DNA of 27,228 nt. Origin: Methanosarcinaceae archaeon (GTDB lineage: Archaea; Halobacteriota; Methanosarcinia; Methanosarcinales; Methanosarcinaceae). The number at the start of each line of letters is the position of its first letter. Positions within the stretch are counted from its first letter, which is position 1. A model generated the notes under the pieces. The model ran no database searches. It was not told the DNA's origin and saw nothing but the letters and a program-made list of their open reading frames with translations. Shown here one piece after another: positions 1 through 15,261 of the stretch. Location of the stretch: positions 1-27,228 of the forward strand of contig JAUWBW010000001.1 in assembly GCA_030609665.1 (NCBI GenBank), in the 5' to 3' direction. Position numbers and translations under genes: made by a program.

Positions 1-64
1 TTCTGATCTCCTTATGTCCAGCTCCTGCCACTTGCACTCGAAAAAGGCTATCTTTCTTTCATTT

Positions 65-724
65 TTATATGTATTTAAGTTCTGGCACACCATCTTTCAA
101 TATCACATAAGAGGTACTATCAATGAAATCGCCGCAATTTATTAATTTATCCAGAATAACCGGAACATGGGTATGACCCATGACTACATAATCTAAATTA
201 TGAGTGAGAGCATATTGATTAGCTTCTTTGTGAGTCGCAATAATAAGAGGGTGTGGCTCATCGTTACGCGATAGTAGTTGACTTGGCTTTTTAAAAAAAC
301 GTTGATAAATATAAGGAAATTTTAAGACTAACCACCCATATGAAAAGCTTCCCAACCGCTGTATTAGATCAAAATTCCAGCCATGACAAAAATATATACC
401 TTCTTTTTCAATAGATTCTGCCATTGAAACATTATATTCCCTATAATTTTTCCATAATTTCATAAGATTGTAATCATGATTTCCAGGTATTATTGTGGTA
501 TGCACTTCTGCAGCCGTTTGCTTAAGATCAGACATTACATCTTTAAAATGCGGTTTTACTGTGTTTAATATTTTATCATATGGATATCTCCATAGATCAA
601 AAATATCACCGCATAAAATAAGTTCATCTGCATCTTCCCTTGCAATGTTAAAAAATTCTTCTATTTTAGGATAATTTGTACACTCATAACCAATATGCAT
701 GTCTGATGCGCAATAAATTTTCAT
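65..724 (-). CDS. Calcineurin-like metallophosphoesterase
   Basis: All five motifs are present: SDMH, GDIFD, GNHD, HG, GHTH. ATG at 724 (MKIYCASDMH) follows a G-rich SD-like run; the ORF track starts at 745. Confidence 0.85.
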   Translation of the reverse strand: MKIYCASDMHIGYECTNYPKIEEFFNIAREDADELILCGDIFDLWRYPYDKILNTVKPHFKDVMSDLKQTAAEVHTTIIPGNHDYNLMKLWKNYREYNVSMAESIEKEGIYFCHGWNFDLIQRLGSFSYGWLVLKFPYIYQRFFKKPSQLLSRNDEPHPLIIATHKEANQYALTHNLDYVVMGHTHVPVILDKLINCGDFIDSTSYVILKDGVPELKYI

Positions 725-1039
725 AAAACCCCCCACTATGATCATTGTTAAAGATAATTAAAGTTCTTTCTTTACTACATATATTCATTCCCCTGTTTTC
801 CTATATTATTTTGAAATATTTAATTTTATAGCAAAATGGAACTCCAATTGAAGATATATATGATGATATAAAATGGGAAGATTTGATGAGATTGAAAAGG
901 GATCTTGAAAAGCCATTGGATGGGAGTTTTTATTGTGAGAATACTTATGGGATGATGGGTGGGATGGATATTTGATGGGATTTTTGAATTGAAGTGATGA
1001 TGTAAGAGCAGTCTCTGGTCTCGAACTGCATTATGGAAG

Positions 1040-1545
1040 TGTTGGGCATGGTCGGATGCGTAATATATATGTCAACATATTGTACAATCTTTTTTTGTTA
1101 GTAATTCTGGACTCTTGCAGTAAGTGAACATAAAATCCATCTGGACACCCCTAAAAAAGTTGGTTCACAATATCCGAAAATGCTTGAACCTTGGGGAGTT
1201 TATCTTTGAATCTTGACAGTACTTGATATTTCCATGTTTTTCGCATGGACTTAAAATGAATAAACTTTTGATGAATTAATTTACCATATTTATCAAATCT
1301 GCTTTCCGTTAAGAGTATATGGAGATGAGGATAAAAGCCCATATCTTTGGAAAATGGATGTATGATAACAATAACACCTGTGAGCAAACGACCATTTCTG
1401 TGCTTGTACGAAATAATGTCGTTAATTGCTACAATTGCTGCATCCATCAAAACCTTTAGTAAAAAACGATCTTGTTTAACAAACCCCCAAAGAACATCTG
1501 GAATTGTGAGGATCCAGAATGATGGTGAGCAACATTTTTGAGAGA
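1040..1545 (-). mobile_element. Degenerate IS91-family (HUH/Y2) transposase remnant
   Basis: The ORF at 1151..1450 carries GVIVIIHPFSKDMGFYPHLHILLT (HUH motif). Upstream, VAHHH and ILTIPDVLW lie in different frames. After the stop at 1151, GFYVH and IVQYVDIYITHPTMP (resembling the YxxRYxxHP catalytic-Tyr region) lie in shifted frames. Confidence 0.7.
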
Positions 1546-1641
1546 TTTAGCCCATTTTTCAGATATATTTATATATTATTATATGATAATTCTATTATAG
1601 AATTATAAAATTATGCAATAATATTATGAGTTGATTTTTAA

Positions 1642-1818
1642 ATGACTTCGATTGCGATAGACGAAGATGATAAACAGTACATAGAAAAACTTAGAAAGGA
1701 TGCACCCACTGGAAAGGTTCTAAATATTAAGCAAACAGCCCACTGCGTATTGGGGTTTATTAAAAAAAATGAAAACGAATATATGATATATATGAATAAT
1801 CAACGGAAAGATTTATGA
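1642..1818 (+). CDS. Small 58-aa protein, possibly ribbon-helix-helix-like (not in ORF track)
   Basis: Hand translation: MTSIAIDEDDKQYIEKLRKDAPTGKVLNIKQTAHCVLGFIKKNENEYMIYMNNQRKDL*. An SD-like GAGTTGA lies upstream and the stop is 3 nt before the next ORF's GTG. The N-terminal strand-helix pattern is RHH-like (inference). Confidence 0.5.
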   Translation: MTSIAIDEDDKQYIEKLRKDAPTGKVLNIKQTAHCVLGFIKKNENEYMIYMNNQRKDL

Positions 1819-1845
1819 GTAGTGATATCTACAAGGGGGGACAAG

Positions 1846-2247
1846 ATGAATTTTACGAACGAAAATGAATTCATAGAATTAAAAAAATCTATTATGGATA
1901 TTTCTAATGGATTATTAAATGATAATCGAAATATTCGTTTAGAGAACTTAAAAGTTCTAAGAAAGATTACCATTAAAATAGAATTGATGAATATCGCAAA
2001 AAAGTGGGACCATAGTGATATTATTCCGATTTTATACATATTGAGGAATTTGGTTAATGATTTATATATTAATCTTGGAACCGATTCTTCACATGATTTC
2101 CCTGCCGAAAGCATTTCAAATGGATATTGTGAAAACTTAGGAAAATTCATCAAATCGTCATTCAATAAAGATAGTGAATCTATTGAAGGATTATACGAGA
2201 CGATTAAGCAATATTATACCAACCTTATGTTAGTTGAATCCGAGTGA
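1846..2247 (+). CDS. Hypothetical alpha-helical protein
   Basis: Open frame 1822..2247. ATG at 1846 follows GGGGGG. The stop overlaps the next gene's GTG (GTGA at 2244-2247). No family recognised. Confidence 0.65.
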   Translation: MNFTNENEFIELKKSIMDISNGLLNDNRNIRLENLKVLRKITIKIELMNIAKKWDHSDIIPILYILRNLVNDLYINLGTDSSHDFPAESISNGYCENLGKFIKSSFNKDSESIEGLYETIKQYYTNLMLVESE

Positions 2248-2900
2248 TTTTTATGAAATTAAAATTAAATGAATCATTTAATAGTACTAAAAAGCGGGTT
2301 AATGAACTAAATAAAAGATCAAATGAATATTTTAGAGACCCTGGCTGTGTCAAGCAATGTACTAAAGCGCATCGAAGTGGCATTCTAAGTTCGCATTACA
2401 TTGATTTTGACAATATGACAATTGATCCCTTTAAAGCAGAGGATATCGTTCTTTTGTATTCTTATAAGATAAATGAAATTATTGAGAAACACCCCGTTGA
2501 TTTTTTGGCATTTATTGAAAAAGCAGATGGAGGAACTACCGGGACACTTAAAATGTCAATAGCAATCTCCATTAAAACCAAGATTCCAAACATTTCATTA
2601 AGAATGGGAAAAGAACTGGCACGTGAAAAATTGAAAATGCCTTATGACATGAACAGTCGGAAAGGTTTAAAGTATATTTTAATTACTGATCATATTTCAA
2701 GCGGGCAGGAAGTTTTGAAATCAATCAAAGTAATTGAAGAAAATGGGGGCAAGGTCACTGACTTAATAACTTATACATCAGAAAGTCATATTGATGTTGA
2801 AGAAATAGAAACCATTGGGATTAACTTTCACACCATTAAAACTGACTTAGACCTTAAAAGCGTAGGAATTTCCTTTGAACCAATTGCAATTGTAGCTTGA
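2244..2900 (+). CDS. Divergent type I phosphoribosyltransferase (PyrE/OPRT-like)
   Basis: SGILSSHYID resembles the OPRT SGxxSxYYID motif. YILITDHISSGQEV is a variant PRPP-binding loop, followed by IKVIEENGGKV. The start could be GTG 2244 or ATG 2253. Confidence 0.75.
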   Translation: MIFMKLKLNESFNSTKKRVNELNKRSNEYFRDPGCVKQCTKAHRSGILSSHYIDFDNMTIDPFKAEDIVLLYSYKINEIIEKHPVDFLAFIEKADGGTTGTLKMSIAISIKTKIPNISLRMGKELAREKLKMPYDMNSRKGLKYILITDHISSGQEVLKSIKVIEENGGKVTDLITYTSESHIDVEEIETIGINFHTIKTDLDLKSVGISFEPIAIVA

Positions 2901-2917
2901 AAAATGGGTAGGATGGA

Positions 2918-3613
2918 ATGGTTTTTCAAATAAATTTAGATTGGGTAGTTGAACTTACCCCTGATAATAAAGGAGAGCACACAATTAAGATTCATGTCAG
3001 TAACCCCTCTGATATGAATCCTGCAAAATCCAATTACTACCACATATTTTTAAATGAAATGAATGTTTCCACAAATTCAGCAAAAATGATTTTTAACAAT
3101 ACATCAATAGAACCCATTAAAGAGGACTATTTTCTTGAAGATAATCACATTAGAATTGATTTTGATAAATTTGATAAAGATTATAAGTTAGATTTTAGTT
3201 CCCGAAAATCGTTTGATTTAGAAATTAATTTCAGTCAACACCCGACAATAAAAAAACATCATGGAATTAAAGATGTAAATGTGGATTTTAGTACTCATTT
3301 AGATTCAGCTTCCTCTAAATTGACATTCATTTTACCACGGAGAAATAGGTTGTTAAAATTTTTCCGGCATAAAATATTGCAAAAAGATGATGAATATCCT
3401 TACACTATAATCCCATATAATGGTGAGCCTACAATTGAACCAGATGAAAAAGGATATCTAAAATTAATTTATACTTCTAGAAGCGACATAATAAGTCCAT
3501 TTGGATTTATGTTTCGTGAGTCAAATATAAGTACAATGTTTTATAGTTTTATTTCTGGGATTTCAATAGGATTAATAGCTAATTATCTTTTTGATTTATT
3601 GCGGGGAAAGTAA
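2918..3613 (+). CDS. Hypothetical protein with a C-terminal transmembrane anchor
   Basis: 231-aa ORF with an SD-like GGGTAGGA. The body is rich in beta-strand-like segments and the C-terminus is hydrophobic (MFYSFISGISIGLIANYLFDLL) followed by RGK. Confidence 0.7.
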   Translation: MVFQINLDWVVELTPDNKGEHTIKIHVSNPSDMNPAKSNYYHIFLNEMNVSTNSAKMIFNNTSIEPIKEDYFLEDNHIRIDFDKFDKDYKLDFSSRKSFDLEINFSQHPTIKKHHGIKDVNVDFSTHLDSASSKLTFILPRRNRLLKFFRHKILQKDDEYPYTIIPYNGEPTIEPDEKGYLKLIYTSRSDIISPFGFMFRESNISTMFYSFISGISIGLIANYLFDLLRGK

Positions 3614-3647
3614 CATTCATTTTTTCGAAGTTAAAATTGCATCCCAA

Positions 3648-3787
3648 GTCAGTGGAGCAACATAGAGTGACTCTCTTGTAATGGGATGAACCTACTCCGG
3701 CATTACTCCGGTTTTCAGGGAACCGTCAGCAATCCAGTTGAGCAATTCAAGAGCTCTTTTGAGATCATCGATCTTTTTTGCTTTTGC
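3648..3787 (-). pseudogene. Duplicated 3' fragment of the GH15 gene (direct repeat of 6070..6209)
   Basis: Manual alignment gives 127/140 identical nt with no gaps. A CAG-to-TAG nonsense change lies at 3692-3694. Confidence 0.9.
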
Positions 3788-4184
3788 AGCACTATTCCAA
3801 TGGAAATGGTGTCTAACTCTGTATTTTCGCACTTTCCGCAGGTATATTTTAAAAACAAATCTTTTTCTTAAATATATAATCATGTCGCATGATTGCTGTT
3901 TTCGAAATATGTGTGCAAATGGTTCAGAATGATGCATGTCTATTATCTACCGAAGTTGGCAAATTGTATGCTTAAACAGTATCTCCTCAACATTGAATGA
4001 GTGGGTGTTATCATCTCGCCATGATTTTTATGTATATACAATACAAATATAATATTTCAGAAATGTACAAAATAGCTATCAGGAAAAATTATTGAATTTT
4101 TGCAGTCACCTGCGGAAAGTGAAATTTTCAAAAGATAAAGTTATATCAAAGACATTTCATAGATAAAATGGGGAAAACATTCGT

Positions 4185-4808
4185 ATGAAATTCTACGATA
4201 TTTCATTGCCAATAGCGGAAGGAATGATAGTATATCCTGAGAACCCGCAGCCTTCGATCGTCAGATATGCATCCATCCCCAGAGATAAAGTGAATGAATC
4301 GATAATAACCATCGGGAGCCATACAGGTACACATGTGGACTCCAGGTTACACATTAAGAATAATGCCGAAGGTGCAGAGGCTTTGCCATTGGATAGTTTT
4401 TTTGGAAAATGCAAGGTGTTCGATCTGACCCACAGTGATAGGGAGATACACAGTGAGGATCTTAGTGGTTATGAAATTGAAAAAGGGAACATAATACTCT
4501 TAAAAACCAGGAACTCTGTACTGGGATACAGGGAATTCAGAAAGGATTTCGTGCACCTGAAACTGGATGCTGCACAATACCTTGTAAAAGCAGGGATCAA
4601 AACACTTGGCTTTGACTACTTGAGTGTGAAAAAATTTGGCGGGGACGACGAGGTTCACGAGCTACTCATCAATAACCTGACCCTGTTCGAGGGTCTCGAT
4701 CTGGCTGATGTGCCAGAAGGAGAATATACATTCATAGGCGTTCCTCTGCGCATAAATACCGACGGAGCACCCGCAAGAGCCATACTTGTTCAGGGTCAGA
4801 TAGAGTGA
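4185..4808 (+). CDS. Cyclase-family metal-dependent hydrolase (kynurenine formamidase-like)
   Basis: HTGTHVD signature, LGFDYLSV, FEGLDL and C-terminal DGAPARA. Confidence 0.9.
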   Translation: MKFYDISLPIAEGMIVYPENPQPSIVRYASIPRDKVNESIITIGSHTGTHVDSRLHIKNNAEGAEALPLDSFFGKCKVFDLTHSDREIHSEDLSGYEIEKGNIILLKTRNSVLGYREFRKDFVHLKLDAAQYLVKAGIKTLGFDYLSVKKFGGDDEVHELLINNLTLFEGLDLADVPEGEYTFIGVPLRINTDGAPARAILVQGQIE

Positions 4809-5731
4809 ATCCTGCTGGTCTTCCTCTCGTTAGCGATATATTCGTCACTGCCATATGGATGTCCGCCAAAGCCATGGCGCATTATGGCTATTGCCCGGGC
4901 CGCATCGTTGTCTTCCTTTCTTGACCTGAAAAGTTCCATCACAGATTGGGTAATTACCGGGATTGGGATCTGCTTTTCTATCGCCTCCTCAACAAGCCAG
5001 TTGACCTCACCCATATCCTCAACATAGCTGGGAACGTCTCTTATATCCTTGAGATCACCCAGACCCTTCTCCATGAGCTCCACAAGCCAGCCCCTGATAA
5101 CGGAACCATAGGACCAATTATGGAAAATGTCACGCATATCCAGATCAAAGTCATTCCGGAGCAGAAGCTCGACCCCCTCGCCAATGGCTTGCAACATCCC
5201 GAATTCGATCCCATTGTGCACAAGTTTCACAAAATGCCCGCTTCCGGGCGCTCCTGTGTACAGATAACCACCTTCAACAGCCAGGAGCTTTAAGATCGGC
5301 TCGCATATCTTATTGGCTTCAGGTTTTCCACCTACCATAAAACAGGCTCCATAACGGGCTCCATCGATCCCACCGCTGGTACCGCAATCAATAAAATGGA
5401 TTCCCATCTTCAACATCTCAGATTCTCTCCTGATAGAATCCTTATAGTAAGAGTTCCCGCCATCTAGGATCACGTCTCCCTTATCCAGATAAGGCACCAA
5501 CTCATCCAGGACCTTATCAATAGTTGGTCCTGCCGGAAGTGAAAGAAAGATCGACCTGGGATGTTCCAAAGAACTTATGAACTCATCATATCCCTCTACC
5601 ACCTTTACGCCTTTCTCTGTGAATTCAGGCTTTGGCCCCCTCGCTTTTCCAACCACAAATATCCCTTTTTCAACACATTGAAGAGCAATATTTCCCCCCA
5701 TCTTACCAAGACCAATAATTCCAAGTTCCAT
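4796..5731 (-). CDS. gnd: 6-phosphogluconate dehydrogenase (decarboxylating), short YqeC/GndA type
   Basis: GLGKMG Rossmann motif, ILDGGNS, DCGTSGG, GSGHFVKLVHNGIEFG and RHGFGGH. At 311 aa it lacks the long C-terminal domain. Confidence 0.9.
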   Translation of the reverse strand: MELGIIGLGKMGGNIALQCVEKGIFVVGKARGPKPEFTEKGVKVVEGYDEFISSLEHPRSIFLSLPAGPTIDKVLDELVPYLDKGDVILDGGNSYYKDSIRRESEMLKMGIHFIDCGTSGGIDGARYGACFMVGGKPEANKICEPILKLLAVEGGYLYTGAPGSGHFVKLVHNGIEFGMLQAIGEGVELLLRNDFDLDMRDIFHNWSYGSVIRGWLVELMEKGLGDLKDIRDVPSYVEDMGEVNWLVEEAIEKQIPIPVITQSVMELFRSRKEDNDAARAIAIMRHGFGGHPYGSDEYIANERKTSRIHSI

Positions 5732-5816
5732 ATAATCACAACTCCCCTACTCCTACACCTAATAAACAAAAAATCCGAGGCCGTAAAAATCACTCCACAG
5801 CCCCATAACACATCAT

Positions 5817-5924
5817 TCAATCCTTGTGTATATCATCCTGGTGCTTTTCAAACTCTTCCTTCGAGGAAAAGGTCGTATTACACATTTTGCACACGAACTC
5901 ACTTTCCTCAGCCTTTTCATCCAT
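5817..5924 (-). CDS. 35-aa C2H2 zinc-finger microprotein (not in ORF track)
   Basis: Hand translation: MDEKAEESEFVCKMCNTTFSSKEEFEKHQDDIHKD*. The pattern is F-x-C-x2-C-x3-F-x5-F-x2-H-x4-H. A perfect GGAGGTGA SD lies 4 nt upstream of the ATG. Confidence 0.8.
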   Translation of the reverse strand: MDEKAEESEFVCKMCNTTFSSKEEFEKHQDDIHKD

Positions 5925-5987
5925 TATCTCACCTCCCACACTTATAGATCAAAAATAAATTTGAAATTGAACATTACTTCAAACCAG

Positions 5988-7973
5988 TCATCCGGTTCCT
6001 GAAATATCCAGATCCGCTCTTTTTTCCACATATCTTGTGATCACGTCCACAAACTCTGCATGACTCCAGGTCAGTGGAGCAACAGAGAGTGACTCTCCTG
6101 TAATGGGATGAACCTGCTCCGGCATTACCCCGGTTTCCAGGGAGCAGTCAGCAACCCAGTTGATCAATTCAAGAGCTCTTTTCAGATCATTAATCTTTTT
6201 CGCTTTTGCTATGTACCACTTCGCAAGCCACAGAGTACATATCAGCCAGGGGTTTCCTGTGGCTTCGTTTGTCAGCCTGTGATAATTGTCATTCTCATAT
6301 CTCGCGATCCCACCTTTACCCCCAACCCAGAGTCGCTCTTCCACATTCTTCATTGTCCTGACCACACGCGGATCGTCAGCCGGGAGTACATCGAAATCAA
6401 AGATCCCATATACACTGCTGTCAACCGTCCTGTCGATCTTCTTTTGACTTATATCGCCTCCTTCATACTGTATGCTCCTCAGAAAAACGCCATTTTCATT
6501 GTCAAAGAGCTCATTTATGAGCACCTCTTTGAGATCATTATATCTGTTTCGGCACATCTCGCAGGTTATTTTATCACTTAATAGATCTCCAAGGTGCCTT
6601 GCCGAAACCAGCCCGGCGTAGACTGCTGATGTTGTAAAAGTAAAAATTCCCCTTCTCTCTTCCCACAGGTCATAACTTTCCACAGGAACCCCATTTGGGT
6701 AACGATAATCATTCATGAAAAATACTGCCTTCTTCACCAACGGCTCATAGAGTTCCTGAACAAACTCGATATCATTGGTTGCCAGATAATACTTCCAAAG
6801 AGCATAAAGTACCAACCCTGTCTCATCTTCCTGGATCGGAAGAGATGGTCTGCCATATTCGACCCAGGGGTGCCAGCTGCTCCCCAATGTCTTATCAGGA
6901 TTATACTTGTGGAGCATACATCCTGTCCACCAGAGCACATCCTTGCAAAATGTAAAGAATGGTTTCGCAAATTCAGGATATCCTGCATCTATCATAGCAA
7001 TGGCAACAAGAGCCCCATCCCTGGACCACATGTAACTGTACGTATCCTTGTTGAACTGCCTGTTGTCTGAATCATTTGCTGCAATGATGGCACCTCCTTT
7101 ATCCGTCTGGGTCTTTATGATCAACAGCGACCTTTTGTAGAGATTTACAAGTCCGGGGTCAAGGTTTGAAAGGTCGACAGTAGTTTGGCTGGCCCAGGAT
7201 CTCTGGGAAGCTTCAGTACCCTTTAATAGACTTTCAGGCCCCATGTCCATGACGCGATCATTTAGCTCATAGACATCATTGAAGTCTTTTCCTGTAGTCA
7301 TATAATAGTAAACGACCCTCGACGAGTTACCCGGGACTTGCAGGTGAACACCAACCGTTGAATCTATAGAACCCTGTGCCACCGGGTTTTTTGAAAGGAC
7401 CCCGTCTTCTGCATCCCTGAATGTCCCTTCGTAACCCTCGCCTTCTGACTGGCCAATGGCATAGTCGTCAATGTCACTGGTTATTCCCTCTTTCTTATTT
7501 GCTCTTAGTAGACCGATCAGGAAATACCTGGCTCTCTTGTAATGTATTATCACATTGTGATCCATCTGGTAAACTGCCGTATCCCCGATCCCATCGCCGT
7601 AAAGGTGGAAATCGTGGTTAAAGAATACACGGATCTCTCTTTTATCATTCCGGGTATTTCTTACAGTAATCCTTCTGAGAAATATGTTGGCCTCACAATC
7701 AACATTCTCCTCAAAGTTTAACTCAATACCAAGATCGCTGTTTATGGCCAGATTATCAGTTGCAAGCGTATCGTTCTTATAAGCAGGTCTCCTTTCCCAC
7801 TCCGATTCATTAACCCACGAAAGCCTGCCATCGGCATACACACCTATCTTCTGGGCGTGTCCGACCAGATGATTCTCCTGGCCAACATAGGGATAATAGA
7901 TATCCCGTACCTGAAACCATTTGTCGATATTGATCAACAAAGACTGATTACCCAGAGCAATATGTCGAGTCAT
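5988..7973 (-). CDS. Glycoside hydrolase family 15 (glucoamylase/trehalase-like)
   Basis: Y(M)WSRDG, IQEDETG, DLWEE (catalytic acid region), PEQV and LTWSHA. ATG at 7973 follows an AGGGGG SD; the ORF track's 8009 start overlaps the upstream gene. Confidence 0.9.
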   Translation of the reverse strand: MTRHIALGNQSLLINIDKWFQVRDIYYPYVGQENHLVGHAQKIGVYADGRLSWVNESEWERRPAYKNDTLATDNLAINSDLGIELNFEENVDCEANIFLRRITVRNTRNDKREIRVFFNHDFHLYGDGIGDTAVYQMDHNVIIHYKRARYFLIGLLRANKKEGITSDIDDYAIGQSEGEGYEGTFRDAEDGVLSKNPVAQGSIDSTVGVHLQVPGNSSRVVYYYMTTGKDFNDVYELNDRVMDMGPESLLKGTEASQRSWASQTTVDLSNLDPGLVNLYKRSLLIIKTQTDKGGAIIAANDSDNRQFNKDTYSYMWSRDGALVAIAMIDAGYPEFAKPFFTFCKDVLWWTGCMLHKYNPDKTLGSSWHPWVEYGRPSLPIQEDETGLVLYALWKYYLATNDIEFVQELYEPLVKKAVFFMNDYRYPNGVPVESYDLWEERRGIFTFTTSAVYAGLVSARHLGDLLSDKITCEMCRNRYNDLKEVLINELFDNENGVFLRSIQYEGGDISQKKIDRTVDSSVYGIFDFDVLPADDPRVVRTMKNVEERLWVGGKGGIARYENDNYHRLTNEATGNPWLICTLWLAKWYIAKAKKINDLKRALELINWVADCSLETGVMPEQVHPITGESLSVAPLTWSHAEFVDVITRYVEKRADLDISGTG

Positions 7974-7998
7974 GTTTCCCCCTATAGATTGTTTGACC

Positions 7999-9066
7999 TC
8001 AAAATTCAATTACCACTTTTATATTTTCACGCATGGAAGAGAGTGCTTCATGTATCTTTTCCGGCGGATACCTGGCTGTTATCAGTTTTGCGAGCAGCCC
8101 TTCCCATCTCGCTTCAGCCGCCAGCAGATCAACTATACCCTGCTCAAAGTCTCTCCTGTGAGCGTTAACAATTCCCACCACAGTTTTGTTGCCCAGCACA
8201 AGACCCTGATTAAAACAATCACTGCATATCTCAATATGCTTGTCGCCACCTGTAACCGATGCAAGTACAACAACCGCATTTGTTCCTGCGACCATTATTG
8301 CATGCATAGCAACACTTGAACTACCGGTCTCCTCAATTACAATATCGACCTGCCTGCCAATCTCATGCGGAATATCATGCAGGCTGGTTTTTTTTGCATT
8401 AAAGTGGATGATACCCAATTCCGAGAATATCTCATCCTTATACGCATTATCAGACGTATCCACAGAAATGACTTCCAGTCCTCGAAGCCTGAGGATCATG
8501 GCAGTGATAAGACCGAGAGATCCCGTGCCGGTTACCAGTGCAATTTCCGGCTCCCATTTCATTCTTTTTTGTACAGTAAAAACTGTTCTTACTGCCTTCT
8601 CAGCAACGCTCGCAGGTTCCAGAAGAACTCCCAGGTCCCCAAGACTTTGTGGAACCTTTACCAAAAAACGTTCCTCTTCTGCATAGTACTCTGAAAGAAA
8701 ACCATGTTTTCCTTTGATCCCCCGTTCAGTGTAATCCCCCTTAAGACACATATCATACTCTCCGGCCTGACAATTGATACAGTCATCAGGCCTCCTTACT
8801 GTAGCAACAACCATATCCCCACGTTTGAATGCTTTCACTTCTGCTCCCACCCCGACAACCTCTCCCAGCGACTCATGACCAAAGATCAGCATTTTTTCAT
8901 CTTCAGGCGGTACCCCGTAGGAACCTTCGTTGATCTCTTTGTCTGTTCCATCAAGCCCGACCAATTTTACCTTCACCAAAACCTGGGTAGCAGTAACAAC
9001 AGGAGTGTCCACATCTATCATCCGGGCACTGCCCTTATTTTTTGGAACAACTGCGATCGCTTTCAT
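7999..9066 (-). CDS. Zn-dependent MDR-family glucose 1-dehydrogenase-like protein
   Basis: GLDGTD, GHE (catalytic Zn), CINCQAGEYDMC, ERGIKG, EPAS and GTGSLG resemble archaeal glucose dehydrogenases. The likely start is MKAIAVV at 9066. Confidence 0.8.
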   Translation of the reverse strand: MKAIAVVPKNKGSARMIDVDTPVVTATQVLVKVKLVGLDGTDKEINEGSYGVPPEDEKMLIFGHESLGEVVGVGAEVKAFKRGDMVVATVRRPDDCINCQAGEYDMCLKGDYTERGIKGKHGFLSEYYAEEERFLVKVPQSLGDLGVLLEPASVAEKAVRTVFTVQKRMKWEPEIALVTGTGSLGLITAMILRLRGLEVISVDTSDNAYKDEIFSELGIIHFNAKKTSLHDIPHEIGRQVDIVIEETGSSSVAMHAIMVAGTNAVVVLASVTGGDKHIEICSDCFNQGLVLGNKTVVGIVNAHRRDFEQGIVDLLAAEARWEGLLAKLITARYPPEKIHEALSSMRENIKVVIEF

Positions 9067-9118
9067 ATGATCAGATCCGGATATTTCTGCGATTGAGACC
9101 AATAAACGTAGGTCATTC

Positions 9119-10546
9119 TCAATGGAAATGTTCAAGACTATGATGATAATGTGCAACCGGCATCAGTGAATAGAATGCCCTTGTCACAACCTCGCTCAAT
9201 GACGGATGGATATCCATGCCACCCATGATGGGTTCTGCACTCTGCAGTGGAATGTACATCAGAGGAATGATCTGATGAATAAGGATCGAGGCATGTGGAC
9301 CTATTATATGTGCCCCAAAGATCTTGTAAGTATCCGATTCCACAATGACCTTTACAAAATAATCCTTTACATCCATTGCCTGTCCTTTGGCAGTGTCCTC
9401 ATATCGCTGGAAGCCTATGAGCACATTATCCTCCCCATACCTTCCAATGGCTTCCCTTTCCCTCAACTCCACGCTTGCAATTTCAGGATATGAAAAAACT
9501 GCATGCGGTACTGCATGATAATCTACCTTAACATTTTTCTTCAAGATCGCATTGTAGTAAACTATAGTTGATTCATAGTTTGCCACATGTTTGAAAAGAT
9601 ATTTCCCGTTGGCATCCCCAAATGCCCAGATGTTTGGCTGTGAAGTTTCAAGATATTCATTTGTCACGATCCAGCCCTTGCTATCAGTTTCTATATCTCC
9701 CTTTCCGGGATGCAGTATGTCTGAGTTTGACCCCCTTCCTGTAGCAATAAGAATTTTCTCTGCAACCACTTCGATCTCTTCTCCGCTATTCCTGTCCTTT
9801 GCAACAACCTTTTTCTTTCCATCATCGGTCATCCGGACCTCAATTACTTCATGATCCGTGATCAGGTTCAGATTCGGATATCCTGACATTACTTTCTTTG
9901 CCAGTTCTGAAACCTCCGGTTCCTCTTCAGGAATGAACTGGGGATTTCTCCCGATGATAGTTACGTCAGAACCCATTGCAGAAAAAAAATGACCATACTC
10001 TGCTGCTATGTAACCCCCGCCTATGATGGCAATACTTTCCGGGAGTTCTGTCATATCAAGTACAGTATCACTTGTGAGATATTGAATCTCATCTAATCCT
10101 TTTACAGGTGGTAATATGGTTTTTGAGCCCGTACATAAAAATATCATATTTGATATGATGGTCTCATTGCCCACCTTCAATGTATAAGGAGCAACAAATT
10201 CCGCCACTTCAGGATAGTAATCTACGTTCTCATTGCTGGAAAGTCCCTCACGGATCATATATATATCCTTTGATATGTGAGTTCTCATCCTATCCATTAC
10301 AGCCTTAAAACCAGTGTTCTTTATTTCCACATCAATGCCAAATTTCGATGCAGTCCCTATTTCCCTGATAAGTTCTGCAGGATAAAATAATAATTTGGAT
10401 GGTATGCATCCTCTTGTAAGGCATATCCCCCCGGGTTCGTCCTTATCGATAACTGCGATCTTTATATCAGGATTTGCGTTTATCATTGCCTCTACAATAA
10501 TCATTGCAGAACCGGTACCTACTACGATCAGATCGTAATCTTTCAA
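9119..10546 (-). CDS. Class I pyridine nucleotide-disulfide oxidoreductase (dihydrolipoamide dehydrogenase/mycothione reductase-like)
   Basis: VGTGS FAD motif, redox-active CLTRGC-IPSK, IIGGGYIAAE, AFGD and C-terminal HPSLSE. TTG start follows a GGGGTGA SD. Confidence 0.9.
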   Translation of the reverse strand: MKDYDLIVVGTGSAMIIVEAMINANPDIKIAVIDKDEPGGICLTRGCIPSKLLFYPAELIREIGTASKFGIDVEIKNTGFKAVMDRMRTHISKDIYMIREGLSSNENVDYYPEVAEFVAPYTLKVGNETIISNMIFLCTGSKTILPPVKGLDEIQYLTSDTVLDMTELPESIAIIGGGYIAAEYGHFFSAMGSDVTIIGRNPQFIPEEEPEVSELAKKVMSGYPNLNLITDHEVIEVRMTDDGKKKVVAKDRNSGEEIEVVAEKILIATGRGSNSDILHPGKGDIETDSKGWIVTNEYLETSQPNIWAFGDANGKYLFKHVANYESTIVYYNAILKKNVKVDYHAVPHAVFSYPEIASVELREREAIGRYGEDNVLIGFQRYEDTAKGQAMDVKDYFVKVIVESDTYKIFGAHIIGPHASILIHQIIPLMYIPLQSAEPIMGGMDIHPSLSEVVTRAFYSLMPVAHYHHSLEHFH

Positions 10547-10769
10547 CTGATCACCCCACTATTCCCAGTATGAAATTGACCTCACTGTTTTTAAGATTTT
10601 CTGTGAATATTATGATCAAGTGATCTTTGTCACAATGTGCATGGGTGTTCCACCGAAAACTCCAATAACACCTCTAAACCCCACCACAAACACCTATATA
10701 TGCCATGACAACATTCATTTTGATTAGTGGGTATTTCCTATAATCAGTGGGAGCAGGAAGTGATATCTT

Positions 10770-11369
10770 ATGGTATTGGGGACTCAAAGAGATTTGGAAA
10801 CAGGCACCTCTATCAAGGAAATTGAGAATGAGATGCGGGTCAGCGAGGTCATGACCAAAAAAGTGTTTGCTTTAGATGTAGGAGCGAACGCTGCCGAAAT
10901 TGCCGAGGAAATGACCAAAAACAATATTTCAAGTATTGTCGTCACAAAGAACGGCGATGCTGTAGGGATCATAACCGAGCGCGATATTGTCAGGAAAGTG
11001 GTGGCAGGGGAAAAAGAATCAGGCAAGATATCTGCCAGTGAGATCATGTCCTCCCCCCTTATGACAATAAGACCTTCAACTAACATAATAGACGCTGCTA
11101 GGATTATGCTCAAGCACGATATCCGTAGGCTTGTCATCAAAGTGAACGGCAGTCCTTCCGGGATTGTTACGGACAAGGACCTGCTCATGATAGCTCCCGG
11201 TCTTAACACCATTTTAGAAAGCCTTATTGAAATGAGCAATGAACAAAACATTCCACGAACGCCGGAACTCGAAAGGGGAATATGCGAATACTGCGGCGCG
11301 GCTGGTGAAAACGTCATGCTCGTAAATGGGTTGATGCTGTGTGAATCCTGTAAGGATTCAGAGAGTTAA
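10770..11369 (+). CDS. CBS-pair protein with a C-terminal Zn ribbon
   Basis: Two CBS motifs (VSEVMT...GIITERD; SEIMS...GIVTDKD) followed by CEYC-x14-CESC. Confidence 0.88.
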   Translation: MVLGTQRDLETGTSIKEIENEMRVSEVMTKKVFALDVGANAAEIAEEMTKNNISSIVVTKNGDAVGIITERDIVRKVVAGEKESGKISASEIMSSPLMTIRPSTNIIDAARIMLKHDIRRLVIKVNGSPSGIVTDKDLLMIAPGLNTILESLIEMSNEQNIPRTPELERGICEYCGAAGENVMLVNGLMLCESCKDSES

Positions 11370-11459
11370 TACATCTGATGGATCAATCAATTTTTCCAGA
11401 TATGAAACCATACGATTATCGAACCCGCAACAATGGACATACAACAAAGGAGTAGACAC

Positions 11460-12260
11460 ATGATCGTTGAAGAAATTATGTCAAAAGAACCTGTATGCGT
11501 AAAAAATAGTGATTTTATCACTCATGCAAGACAGCAGATGCGCGACCATTATTTACGCGGACTTCCTGTGGTCGATGGATCGAACAGGGTAGTCGGCATC
11601 CTGACAGACCAGGATATACTTAACATTACATCCACCAGATCCAATGTGACAGTTGGAGGATATGCACGTGAGTGTCCCACGATCACTCCGGATATGGATA
11701 TAATAAGATCTGCTCACCTTTTGGTAGAAGCAAAGCAGGGCAGAGTTCCTGTAGTTGTATCAACAAGTGATAAAACATGTATCGGGATCTTGAGCGATGT
11801 GGATATCCTGAAAAATATCCATCCTACAAAAAAGTCCCCAAAAACAGTTGGAGATATCATGACGACCAATATTTTGACATGCCATCCGGATGACAGTATT
11901 GCAAAAGTCTGGTTACAAATGATCGAATACAATTATACCGGCTTGCCTGTAGTGTCTCACAAGAACGAAATGATGGGGATCATAACAAGAAGAGATGTTA
12001 TAAGATCCGGATACGCAAGAACCGGATCAAGTGACTCACACGGCACAAGACCCGGCGATTCTACAAAGGTCGAGAAAGTCATGTCTACCCCAACATATAC
12101 AATATCACATGGCACACCAATCTCAAAAGCTATAGAGATGATGCTCCACTACGATACCGGAAGGGTCAGTGTTGTTAATGGAAAAGAATTGGTAGGGATC
12201 GTAGACAGGCGGGATGTCTTGCGGGCTTGTCTGGTTGGTACAGGCTTCGAAGTGATGTAA
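11460..12260 (+). CDS. Four-CBS-domain protein
   Basis: Repeated IM[ST]...LPVV...GI(L/I)T motifs. ATG at 11460 follows AGGAG; the alternative start is 11433. Confidence 0.88.
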   Translation: MIVEEIMSKEPVCVKNSDFITHARQQMRDHYLRGLPVVDGSNRVVGILTDQDILNITSTRSNVTVGGYARECPTITPDMDIIRSAHLLVEAKQGRVPVVVSTSDKTCIGILSDVDILKNIHPTKKSPKTVGDIMTTNILTCHPDDSIAKVWLQMIEYNYTGLPVVSHKNEMMGIITRRDVIRSGYARTGSSDSHGTRPGDSTKVEKVMSTPTYTISHGTPISKAIEMMLHYDTGRVSVVNGKELVGIVDRRDVLRACLVGTGFEVM

Positions 12261-12387
12261 TGCGCGTATCAGGATTTTTCAATAACCAAACACTTATTAC
12301 CAAATCAGTCTTTACTATCAATTGTAGGGAGGCTTGAATGGTAGCAATATTTTATAAGACGATACCTAAAATTTTAATCATATTTCC

Positions 12388-12465
12388 AATAGAAGATTTC
12401 AATAGAAGATTTCAATAGAAATCTTCGATAGAAATCTTCGATAGAAATTTTTGATAGAAAATTTC
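12388..12465 (+). repeat. Degenerate 13-bp tandem repeat x6 with internal inverted symmetry
   Basis: Units: AATAGAAGATTTC x2, AATAGAAATCTTC, GATAGAAATCTTC, GATAGAAATTTTT, GATAGAAAATTTC. GAAGATTTC is the reverse complement of GAAATCTTC. Confidence 0.9.
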
Positions 12466-12483
12466 GACAGTTTGGTGGTCTAA

Positions 12484-13485
12484 TTGAATACACGAAACAA
12501 AAAATTCAGAATTGAAGAAGAGAAGATGAAAGTGCAGGAAAAACTGAATGCCAATGACAAAACCATTCAGAGAAACGACGCAAAAATGTTAAGCACTACA
12601 GGCACAATGGACGTCGGACCTGTCAATTTCAAAGCCAAAATATCGGAACACGAAGGAGATATCATGTCAGTTGCTACTAAAGACGTGGTCACTGTCCCTC
12701 CGACAACAACGATAATGGGTGCAATAAAGACAATGACAAACAAAGGATTCAGGCGTGTCCCGATTACCGATGCTGGCACGAACCGCCTTGAAGGAGTGGT
12801 CACATCCGTTGATATTGTCGACTTTTTGGGTGGAGGAAGTAAGAACCTGCTTGTCGAAAAACGGTTCAAGGGCAACCTCCTTGCAGCTATCAATGCAGAT
12901 GTTCGAGAGATAATGCGCCATAATGTTTCACACCTGAAAGAAGATTCGAATATCTCAGATGCACTTAAAATAATGAGTGAAGAGAAAACCGGTGGTCTTC
13001 CCATATTAAGCGGGGACGGTCGAGTCCGTGCTATCTGCACGGAAAAAGATTTTGTCAAACTTGTTGCAGGCATACATGCCAACAAATCAGTTGGAGCGTA
13101 TATGAGCAAAAAGGTAAAAACCGCTCCATCGAATACAACAATTTTCAATTCTGCAAAGATCATGGTAAATGAAGGGTTCAGGAGACTTCCTGTTGTGACG
13201 GACAGTATACTCATTGGAGTGATCACTGCTTCTGATATTATGAATTTCATGGGAAGCGGGAATGCATTCAATAAACTCGTAACAGGAAACATCCACGAAG
13301 CATTCGATGCCCCGATAAGTTCACTTATCTCAAAGGATGTTGTGTGGGCATCGTCCGATCTGGATATCGGAGAGGCAGCAGCAATTATGATCGAGAAAAG
13401 TGTTGGTTCCATTCCAATAATTGATGATGGGATCCTTTGCGGCATACTCACAGAGCGCGATATCCTGCGTTCGATAACAGAATAG
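12484..13485 (+). CDS. Four-CBS-domain protein
   Basis: FRRVPIT...GVVTSVDI, LPIL, FRRLPVV...GVITASDI and IPII...GILTERD. The start is uncertain (TTG 12484, ATG 12526 or later). Confidence 0.88.
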   Translation: MNTRNKKFRIEEEKMKVQEKLNANDKTIQRNDAKMLSTTGTMDVGPVNFKAKISEHEGDIMSVATKDVVTVPPTTTIMGAIKTMTNKGFRRVPITDAGTNRLEGVVTSVDIVDFLGGGSKNLLVEKRFKGNLLAAINADVREIMRHNVSHLKEDSNISDALKIMSEEKTGGLPILSGDGRVRAICTEKDFVKLVAGIHANKSVGAYMSKKVKTAPSNTTIFNSAKIMVNEGFRRLPVVTDSILIGVITASDIMNFMGSGNAFNKLVTGNIHEAFDAPISSLISKDVVWASSDLDIGEAAAIMIEKSVGSIPIIDDGILCGILTERDILRSITE

Positions 13486-13600
13486 ACCAATAAATTTTCG
13501 TCCAGATACAGAGATGATAACTTATTGAAACAACTTTTACCCTGATTATAATTATAAGTGTAATTATAATGCAATGCAAAACACAAAAAGGAGGGTCAGA

Positions 13601-14437
13601 ATGAATGTGGAAGATATTATGAGTTCCCCGGTATATGTCATTGCACCGGATGAACCCCTATCTCGTGCAAGGAAGTTGATGTTAAAACACAAGATCGGTT
13701 CTATTGTTGTTGTTAACGATGATGGTATGATTGGTATTGTCACCAAATCCGATCTGGGAAAGCGAATGGCACAGGCAGAGCCTATATGGAGGAGACGTCC
13801 AATTGACAAGGTTCCTATAAATCTGGTGATGACGGAATCTCCGATAACGATCTATCCAGAGGCTTCGATCAGACAAGCTGTTGATCTTATGCTTGAAAAT
13901 AACATAAACAACCTCCCTGTTATGAAAAACTCTGTTGTTGGTATCGTGACAAAAAAAGATATTGTCAGATACGTATCAGAGCAGTCATTCGATACAAAAG
14001 TTTCCGATCTGATGAGCGAAGATATCATATCAGTTCATAGGCATCACACGATCAACCATGTCATAGATGAAATGGAGAAAAATAAGATCAACAAGGTCAT
14101 TGTCATAGATGACGCTGAAGAGGGTGTCGGTATCATCTCTACAACAAACCTCGCACTTAGCGCTATGACTGATAATGAAGGTAAACTTTCAACTAAGAGC
14201 ATCAAAATGGCAAGAAAGCCAAAACAGGGTGGTGAGAAGATATATCGTTACATAAAAGAAGTACCACTAGTTGCAGAAGATATTATGTCTGGACCGATTG
14301 TGACAATCGCCAGTGATGATACGGTCGCTAATGCGGCGAATATCATGATCAAAGAGAATATCACGGCACTGCCTGTCGAACAGGATAATGAGATTGTCGG
14401 GATGATCAGCAGAAGCGATGTTATTAGAGCAGTATAG
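13601..14437 (+). CDS. Four-CBS-domain protein
   Basis: [19 protein letters not shown]...GIVTKKD and LPVE...GMISRSD. ATG follows GGAGGG. Confidence 0.9.
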
Positions 14438-14484
14438 AAATTAAATATATTAAGAAATATTTTTGGATGTAAGAGGTGATAACT

Positions 14485-15261
14485 ATGCAAATCAAAGATA
14501 TAATGGTGCAGCCACATACCATTGATAAGGCAGATACGATATCCCATGCACTTGACATGATGGATAAAAAAAATACGCGCCGTCTGCTTGTTAAGCATGC
14601 TGGTGATATGGTAGGTGTCCTGACAATGAGAAATATTACTAAAGAGCTCGGAACACGAAAAAAAGGGGCTAAACCTGCATCATCCCTTCACGTTGCGACA
14701 GCCGTATCTGACAATTATGTTAAGGTATTGCCTGACATAGATATCAACGATGTCATCACACTGATGAAGAAAAACAATGGCGTGATCATGGTCAGTGAGA
14801 ATGACGAGATTGTTGGATGGGTGACTCCAAAAGAGCTGATGAAAAGCAACCATTTTGGTGGATACGCAGCAGAAGTTATGCAAAAAGACCCTATTGTCGC
14901 AAGCCCTGGTGACCGTGTGAGCCATATCAGACACCTGATCCTTGATAACGACATTGGAAGATTGCCTGTTGTGGAGAATGGGAAACTTGTCGGAATCGTT
15001 ACAGAAAAGGACGTTGCAAAAGCAATGCGTGCCTTTAGGGATGTTGTTTCAGGAAACAAACAGGATTCCCGCATCAAGAACCTCATTGTAGAGGACATAA
15101 TGACAAGAGGTGTGAAAACAGCATATTCGAACACTTCGGTATCCGATGTTGTCAAGATGATGATCGAGGAGAACATTAGTGGCGTGCCTGTGCTTAACCT
15201 CGAAGATGATATGGTAGGGTTCATCACAAGAAGATGTGTTGTCGATGCAATGGTGGAATGA
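14485..15261 (+). CDS. Four-CBS-domain protein
   Basis: MQIKDIM, RLPVV...GIVTEKD and VPVL...GFITRR. SD is GAGGTGAT. Confidence 0.9.

Follow-up and report, generated by a model that had tools for sequence, protein, structure and literature searches.

In the window, by which we mean the whole 27,228-nucleotide stretch analysed here, a 35-residue protein with a single classical C2H2 zinc finger is encoded directly behind a gene for a glucoamylase-like enzyme of glycoside hydrolase family 15 (GH15). The host is an uncultured archaeon of the methylotrophic-methanogen family Methanosarcinaceae, and comparison across that family suggests that GH15 and the finger have been inherited, lost and apparently transferred together. 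We consider it probable that the function of the finger is tied to this GH15 paralogue. Our best explanation overall, which we hold tentatively, is that the finger is a GH15-dedicated accessory or regulatory protein and the last cistron of the GH15 unit. The gene is already known and its association with GH15 is the new part, so that we regard the pairing as a well-founded lead rather than a discovery. The features needed for the argument are as follows.

5817..5924, minus strand: coding sequence of the C2H2 microprotein (35 aa, single classical finger, stop included; supported by Pfam, the structure model and orthologues)
5929..5936, minus strand: Shine-Dalgarno (SD) sequence GGAGGTGA, perfect, with a 4-nt spacer to the finger ATG at 5924
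5766..5805, minus strand: terminator-like hairpin of 13 pairs (5805..5776) followed by T6, 11 nt past the finger stop
5988..8009, minus strand: GH15 glucoamylase-like gene, the invariant upstream partner (Pfam Glyco_hydro_15; NCBIfam oligosaccharide amylase below cut-off)
7999..9156, minus strand: glucose dehydrogenase-type MDR gene (gdh; Glu_dehyd_C), found with the pair only in the genera g1 and g14
9119..10546, minus strand: dihydrolipoyl dehydrogenase-type class-I flavoprotein disulfide reductase gene (lpd; NCBIfam NF004947, 775 bits)
4796..5731, minus strand: NAD+-dependent 6-phosphogluconate dehydrogenase-like gene (gnd; gnd_rel, TIGR00872)

The finger frame runs on the minus strand from an ATG at 5924..5922 through 35 codons to a stop at 5819..5817. 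The first-pass annotation had described a perfect SD followed by a classical C2H2 reading frame in 5817-5936, a range that corresponds to the finger coding sequence plus its SD, and had placed the finger in the gap between the GH15 and gnd-like genes; both descriptions hold, with everything on the minus strand. It had also called the gene hidden and too short for the ORF track. The frame is indeed too short for a track with a 60-aa cut-off, but an identical 35-aa protein is already among the NCBI-sourced gene calls, and orthologues from Methanosalsum zhilinae (WP_013898355.1), Methanohalobium evestigatum (WP_013193714.1) and Methanolobus vulcani (SDG09211.1) are annotated, as is a C2H2 finger of Ca. 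Methanoperedens (WP_241763358.1). The names given in NCBI and JGI are 'C2H2-type zinc finger protein' or 'uncharacterized C2H2 Zn-finger protein'. Our literature search returned no paper on this finger family or on the GH15-finger pairing.

The ATG at 5924 can be taken as the finger start, because the frame upstream of it is closed in other genera and because orthologues in g7 (L033-L038), where the finger ORF has no ATG, begin with GTG or TTG behind a G-rich SD. A GTG at 5939 was considered as an alternative start and rejected: the extension it opens runs through the SD, and other genera do not keep it. We likewise set aside a plus-strand ORF of 128 aa (5561..5947), which overlaps both the finger coding sequence and the 5' end of the minus-strand gnd-like gene, two supported genes. 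Past the finger stop, the terminator-like site at 5805..5776 is the strongest of its kind within 4700-10900, a hairpin and T-run of similar kind occurs in same-genus loci, and it probably marks the end of the transcription unit. From its position the finger is probably the last cistron of an lpd-gdh-GH15 unit, with gnd transcribed separately. We infer that the finger is co-transcribed with GH15 and translated from its own strong SD.

That the finger ORF is a real, translated gene is close to certain. Orthologues from two same-genus genomes are 86% and 80% identical to the window protein and those from other genera 31-58%. In an alignment of 17 sequences M1, both Cys, F19 and both His are invariant, M17 and T18 are nearly so (the window finger carries T instead of M at position 17), and the helix keeps the pattern [ST]-[KR]-x-[ED]-[FY]-[ED]-[KR]-H. 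Nei-Gojobori dN/dS is 0.07-0.3 in pairs with unsaturated synonymous sites, the one exception being a near-identical pair at 0.5, a value that comes from four substitutions; between genera, synonymous sites are saturated and the finger motif is retained. Nearly all orthologues have a G-rich SD (GGGAGGTGA or a variant) 5-9 nt before the start, weaker in Methanosalsum. The syntenic homologues are thus under purifying selection, and the first-pass proposal does not meet the fate that it had set for itself should conserved homologues fail to appear. One might still ask whether so small a frame, with a marginal Pfam score, could be a chance ORF or a conserved non-coding element rather than a protein. 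The comparative data effectively refute this reading, to which we give almost no credence: selection acts at the codon level, SD and frame are conserved while the start codon changes, zinc ligands and core residues are invariant in the 17 orthologues, and the strict classical pattern arose in 0 of 300 Markov-1 shuffles (it occurs once in the six frames of the window). An Rfam scan of the finger region also matched no family, and a known RNA element at this locus was accordingly dropped as a candidate.

By every feature testable here, in sequence and in predicted structure, the protein belongs to the classical C2H2 family, and we predict with high confidence that it is a zinc-binding finger of that type. 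Its ligand residues C12, C15, H28 and H33 follow the pattern C-x2-C-x12-H-x4-H, within the classical C-x2-4-C-x12-H-x3-5-H, and the three hydrophobic core positions are occupied by F10, F19 and F25, which are F/Y, F and F/Y throughout the orthologues. Pfam PF00096 (zf-C2H2) scores 26.0 bits against a gathering cut-off of 25.2, a marginal pass by 0.8 bits. In a six-frame search of the genome the finger scored 25.3 bits to zf-C2H2 and was the sole C2H2 match above cut-off in this 1.77-Mb, 74%-complete bin. A profile of the finger family run against the PDB recovered fingers of ZBTB20, CTCF, ADR1 and BCL11A (E 6e-10 to 1e-4). AlphaFold2, given the 17-sequence alignment, predicts strands at 10-12 and 17-19 and a helix at 22-33, that is, a beta-beta-alpha fold, with core pLDDT 88-90; the nine N-terminal residues are of low confidence (block mean about 59), and we read them as a disordered tail. 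The top Foldseek matches in the PDB are all classical fingers (BCL11A, CTCF, Tramtrack, WT1), superposing at about 0.9-1.1 Å over 25-27 residues, with E-values above 0.1 that are uninformative for a domain of only 27 residues. Related models do not fit: zf-met (19.7 against a cut-off of 21.2 bits) and zf-C2H2_jaz (19.0 against 22.6) stay below threshold, no model in the NCBIfam scan fits the microprotein, and a C4 site built from a C(P)XCG pair is absent, since the finger has one CxxC and two His and no CPXCG. The first-pass description of a single 'eukaryote-style' classical finger is therefore borne out by Pfam, profile and predicted fold alike.

In gene position and in phyletic distribution the finger is closely tied to one GH15 clade. 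In g1, g14, g6, g5, g3 and g7 its gene follows immediately on the 3' side of GH15, in the same orientation and mostly after a gap of 33-66 nt. The GH15 paralogues of the family fall into at least four clades (at least 63%, 42-44%, 39-41% and 28-32% identical to the window enzyme), and the finger goes with one of them. We searched 161 family genomes, one sample that includes several incomplete bins, with both GH15 and finger queries. A GH15 orthologue at 63% identity or more occurs in 20 of the 161, and all 20 have a finger match, one of them (G108) frameshifted. Of the 141 genomes without the orthologue only two have a finger match, G156, where it lies beside a GH15 remnant, and G258, where it is a 24-aa fragment. 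Of the 20 carriers, 18 have GH15 and finger side by side on one strand; in the remaining two, both genes lie at contig ends (G004) or the finger and the GH15 orthologue are on different contigs (G114). The other three paralogue clades are without a finger. In a maximum-likelihood tree the finger-linked GH15s form one clade (support 99/100) apart from the paralogues. We define the GH15-linked C2H2 microprotein group by core motif, size and position: the core F-x-C-x2-C-x-M-T-F ... E-[YF]-[ED]-[KR]-H, in a protein of under 50 aa encoded immediately 3' of the orthologous GH15 and on its strand, is shared by the window locus and 17 of the 19 other carriers.

In four genomes (M. zhilinae, M. evestigatum and two of g7) GH15 and finger form a unit of their own, with flanking genes that are divergent or convergent. 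Sampling 401 genomes of the phylum, we also met the arrangement outside the family: in G302, which belongs to another family, a finger comes after a GH15 that is 74% identical and that falls inside the linked clade of the Methanosarcinaceae in the tree (support 96/91). This is consistent with transfer of GH15 and finger as a unit, a mis-binned contig being the alternative. At this locus (L092, G302:C43; also L093, G598:C22) two C2H2 microprotein genes lie tail-to-tail, at 1324-1419 on the plus and 1480-1590 on the minus strand, one of the GH15-linked type and the other a 'type B' that resembles the Methanoperedens proteins, and they adjoin the 74%-identical GH15 and a 72%-identical cyclase-family gene. 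Here too the arrangement suggests lateral transfer or a mis-binned contig.

It is conceivable that the finger serves the cell in a way that has nothing to do with GH15 and shares its transcription unit only as a passenger. The finger frame remains intact beside a decayed GH15 in three genomes (with multiple stops in G152 and G265, and only the remnant in G156), finger and enzyme are unlinked in G114, and metagenomes hold many unrelated C2H2 microprotein clusters. Conversely, G108 (L041/L069) has its frameshifted finger next to a GH15 that seems intact except for one TAA reported within the match. Judging from these frames, the module is decaying in part of g7, and the one-sided losses imply that GH15 and finger are not strictly interdependent. 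These cases carry little weight, since a 35-codon finger is a mutational target about 19 times smaller than GH15. Against hitch-hiking stand the co-occurrence in 20 of 20 genomes with one paralogue clade only, the near absence of the finger without that clade, and an adjacency that has persisted across at least seven genera with saturated synonymous sites and through an apparent inter-family transfer; we therefore think this explanation quite unlikely. In the ESM Atlas we find many clusters of C2H2 microproteins of 32-60 aa. A protein homology search with the 40-aa GTG-start frame gave only three close clusters, and four microprotein representatives were among the best 150 matches of a profile search dominated by long multi-finger proteins, which is a hint of a narrow family and not a census.

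The other genes around the finger are less constant than GH15. In the window's genus lpd heads the co-oriented run, and lpd-gdh accompany the GH15-finger pair only in g1 and g14. The gnd-like gene, downstream of the terminator-like site, adjoins the finger only in the same two genera and is probably a separate unit. The longest-ORF calls overlap between GH15 and gdh (7999-8009) and between gdh and lpd (9119-9156). Orthologues align only from GH15 residues 6-13 and from gdh residue 23-24, so that the true starts of both are probably internal, at an ATG near 7973 in the case of GH15, and the genes close together without an overlap. The disulfide oxidoreductase that precedes GH15 in g3 and part of g7 is also of class I but differs from that of the window (27-30% identity); in g3 it comes after an aldehyde dehydrogenase and a TPP enzyme, and in g5 and g6 the GH15-finger locus has no such enzyme. 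We therefore rejected lpd, gdh and gnd as conserved partners, as they are missing at the locus in Methanosalsum, Methanohalobium and part of g7. The first-pass annotation had linked the finger to the disulfide reductase and had named Gdh and Gnd as further candidates for pull-downs. The link to Gdh and Gnd is not supported, since these genes are absent where GH15 and finger stand alone and GH15 is the invariant partner. The reductase link is not supported either, the enzyme not being a constant partner; a class-I flavoprotein disulfide reductase does recur near the pair in four of seven genera and next to a Methanoperedens paralogue.

This recurrence matters for another explanation, in which the finger would act as a zinc/thiol redox switch in concert with the flavoprotein disulfide reductase, as had first been suggested: an oxidised Cys pair would release zinc, and the finger would signal to the reductase or be reset by it, perhaps together with a CxxC of GH15. 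Two subfamilies of class-I pyridine-nucleotide disulfide oxidoreductase precede GH15 in g1, g14, g3 and part of g7. Of two finger paralogues in Ca. Methanoperedens, one precedes an lpd homologue (66% identity) and the other a DAO-type FAD oxidoreductase. The linked GH15 clade, moreover, has cysteines of its own: C364 is present in 11 of 11 of its members, C483-x2-C486 in 9 of 11 and C486 in 11 of 11, and each of these is found in 0 of the 12 paralogues sampled. But several g7 genomes, Methanosalsum and Methanohalobium keep the pair with no reductase at the locus, two g7 genomes keep the finger with a GH15 that lacks the CxxC, and the Methanoperedens proteins belong to a separate finger subfamily. 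The theme of redox flavoproteins is thus, from gene neighbourhoods, a recurrent and not a constant feature, and we doubt strongly that the finger is such a switch. The clade-specific cysteines could form a metal or disulfide site in GH15, a protein whose predicted model has a pLDDT of 88 and a pTM of 0.91; a W-W-x-G-C motif is also present in the linked clade. The genome of the window has four GH15 matches (G000, contigs C224, C76, C74 and C141), and at least four paralogue clades are a marked expansion, given that these organisms do not use sugars for growth. The Methanoperedens paralogues are 33 aa each (G121:C5; L067 at 9093-9197 and L068 at 8481-8627), each with a GGAGGTGA-type SD (one GGGAAGTGA), and their lpd locus also encodes a PHB-depolymerase-like hydrolase, an enoyl-CoA hydratase and a DUF255 thioredoxin-domain protein.

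How might a single small finger serve one hydrolase? In our proposal the 35-aa protein would comprise a disordered nine-residue tail and one zinc-binding beta-beta-alpha C2H2 finger, and would be encoded by the last cistron of a transcription unit in which one GH15 paralogue is the constant element. The finger would then act in trans as a zinc-stabilised binding module dedicated to the GH15 enzyme or its pathway, and would control the stability, activity or assembly of GH15 through protein-protein contact during alpha-glucan/glycogen mobilisation. We infer protein contact as the mechanism only tentatively, and think it less likely that the finger is a conventional sequence-specific DNA-binding factor. 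A protein-contact module is favoured by a pairing that is with one enzyme paralogue and not with a promoter architecture, by a finger without conserved basic flanks or a phosphate-contact residue, by the acidic tail in two genera and by the very strong SD. There is precedent for such a role, as eukaryotes have single C2H2 fingers that bind proteins and Methanosarcina has small enzyme-modulating proteins. Chain Bk of PDB 9qf4, part of a very large assembly and 64 aa long, is a 'C2H2-type domain-containing protein' that the finger matches weakly (E 0.008); it may be a precedent for a small C2H2 subunit of a complex.

But it is also possible, if rather unlikely in our judgement, that the finger is a nucleic-acid-binding regulator, a single DNA- or RNA-binding finger encoded in cis and autoregulating the GH15 unit or its mRNA. 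Adjacency and co-occurrence would fit a cis-encoded transcriptional or post-transcriptional regulator too, the C2H2 fold most often binds nucleic acids, and the best matches in sequence and fold are DNA-binding fingers. A single finger of an archaeal virus, AFV1p06, does bind DNA (PMC3541406). Among the orthologues several have Lys-rich tails and a basic stretch between the histidines, K/R is conserved at helix positions 1 and 6, and there is a weak likeness to the dsRNA-binding zf-met and JAZ types, with scores that, as noted, fall below the cut-offs. On the other hand, one finger reads only 3-4 bp and normally requires conserved basic flanks, and the N-terminal tails are not conserved, ranging in net charge from -5 to +2 and being strongly acidic in g1 and g7. 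The residue before the conserved Phe is not basic, the family having M-T-F in place of [KR]-x-F and thus being without the usual phosphate-contact residue, and the very strong SD would suggest abundant rather than regulator-level synthesis. The hallmarks of sequence-specific DNA-binding C2H2 factors (tandem fingers or basic flanks, phosphate contacts) are therefore absent from its sequence features.

The first-pass annotation had argued against standard DNA binding from the acidic helix of the window protein. That acidity turns out to be a weak guide to function, as it is lineage-specific: net charge is -6 in the window finger and -5 to +6 in orthologues, and the stretch between the histidines is acidic only in the window's genus and basic in most others. 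Helix positions 2, 3 and 5 are mostly acidic, which speaks against a standard DNA reader, and the conserved K/E pattern of the helix may only stabilise it.

We also considered a more specific form of the accessory reading, in which the distinct, cysteine-bearing GH15 clade would have the finger as its own zinc-finger subunit or switch, and the finger would gate the breakdown of glycogen/alpha-glucan in methylotrophic methanogens by zinc or thiol-redox state, in some lineages with the adjacent flavoprotein disulfide reductase. We think this improbable as a whole. If it proved true, prokaryotes would have their first demonstrated case of a classical C2H2 finger dedicated to an enzyme as its partner.

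Classical C2H2 fingers are signature DNA readers of eukaryotes. To our knowledge archaea have few counterparts, nearly all of them uncharacterised, and the one case that has been studied comes from a virus. Compared with the eukaryotic fingers of the TFIIIA/Zif268 type (PF00096), the window protein has the same ligand spacing, the same three core positions and the same predicted beta-beta-alpha fold, but its one finger, in a chain of 35 residues, stands free where those come in tandem arrays; it has neither a TGEKP-type linker nor the usual basic phosphate-contact residues, and its gene follows that of a glycoside hydrolase in an archaeal operon. Like Ros/MucR it has a prokaryotic Cys2His2 coordination, but the spacing and size of that family do not fit. 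Ros has a shorter Cys-to-His spacer and a globular domain of about 58 residues with a different topology, and it binds DNA. The annotated orthologues from M. zhilinae, M. evestigatum and M. vulcani are 31-45% identical to the window finger, keep the ligands, M-T-F and E-[YF]-E-[KR]-H, and follow an orthologous GH15; they differ from it in tails and net charge.

Guillière et al. 2013 determined the structure of the single-finger DNA-binding protein AFV1p06 of an archaeal virus, and pointed to about 20 uncharacterised C2H2 proteins of Euryarchaeota as a sister group (PMC3541406). AFV1p06 and this sister group are, like the window protein, small and archaeal with one classical-type finger and disordered termini, and the sister group shares with it the lack of a downstream extension. 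By its description (PMC3541406), AFV1p06 instead has Glu as fourth ligand and an extension of loop, helix and third strand, whereas the window protein ends two residues past H33; and AFV1p06 is viral and binds DNA, whereas the GH15-linked family is chromosomal. Among cellular proteins, the haloarchaeal C(P)XCG proteins (HVO_2753, HVO_0758, Brz) and the small proteins of Methanosarcina mazei likewise have under 70 aa and one zinc site, with regulatory or adaptor roles where these are known (PMC6562870, PMC10716476). Those proteins, however, are C4 zinc ribbons or knuckles with CPXCG, and the window protein is a C2H2 beta-beta-alpha finger without it.

The GH15-finger family offers a clean and testable system, with a finger of 35 residues, an obvious candidate partner and carriers among cultured methanogens (Methanosalsum zhilinae, Methanohalobium evestigatum and Methanolobus vulcani). 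Its binding target would show what a free-standing classical finger does in archaea, and could expose a new control point in the use of glycogen by methanogens.

Two further parts of the window deserve mention. Upstream of the reductase gene, positions 10770-15261 hold a co-oriented run of ORFs that is divergent from the lpd-gdh-GH15 unit and is conserved with that unit in another genome (G002, L070), with CBS-domain matches in 10770-11369 and 11433-12260 and three mutually similar ORFs (12484-13485, 13574-14437 and 14476-15261; 23-29%). At the other end, positions 1-4000 have a GC content of 31-32% against 40-49% elsewhere in the window, and the ORFs at 2244-2900 and 2918-3613 have no significant Pfam match, the only hit being a sub-threshold one at E 0.08; from its composition this segment may be foreign or mobile.
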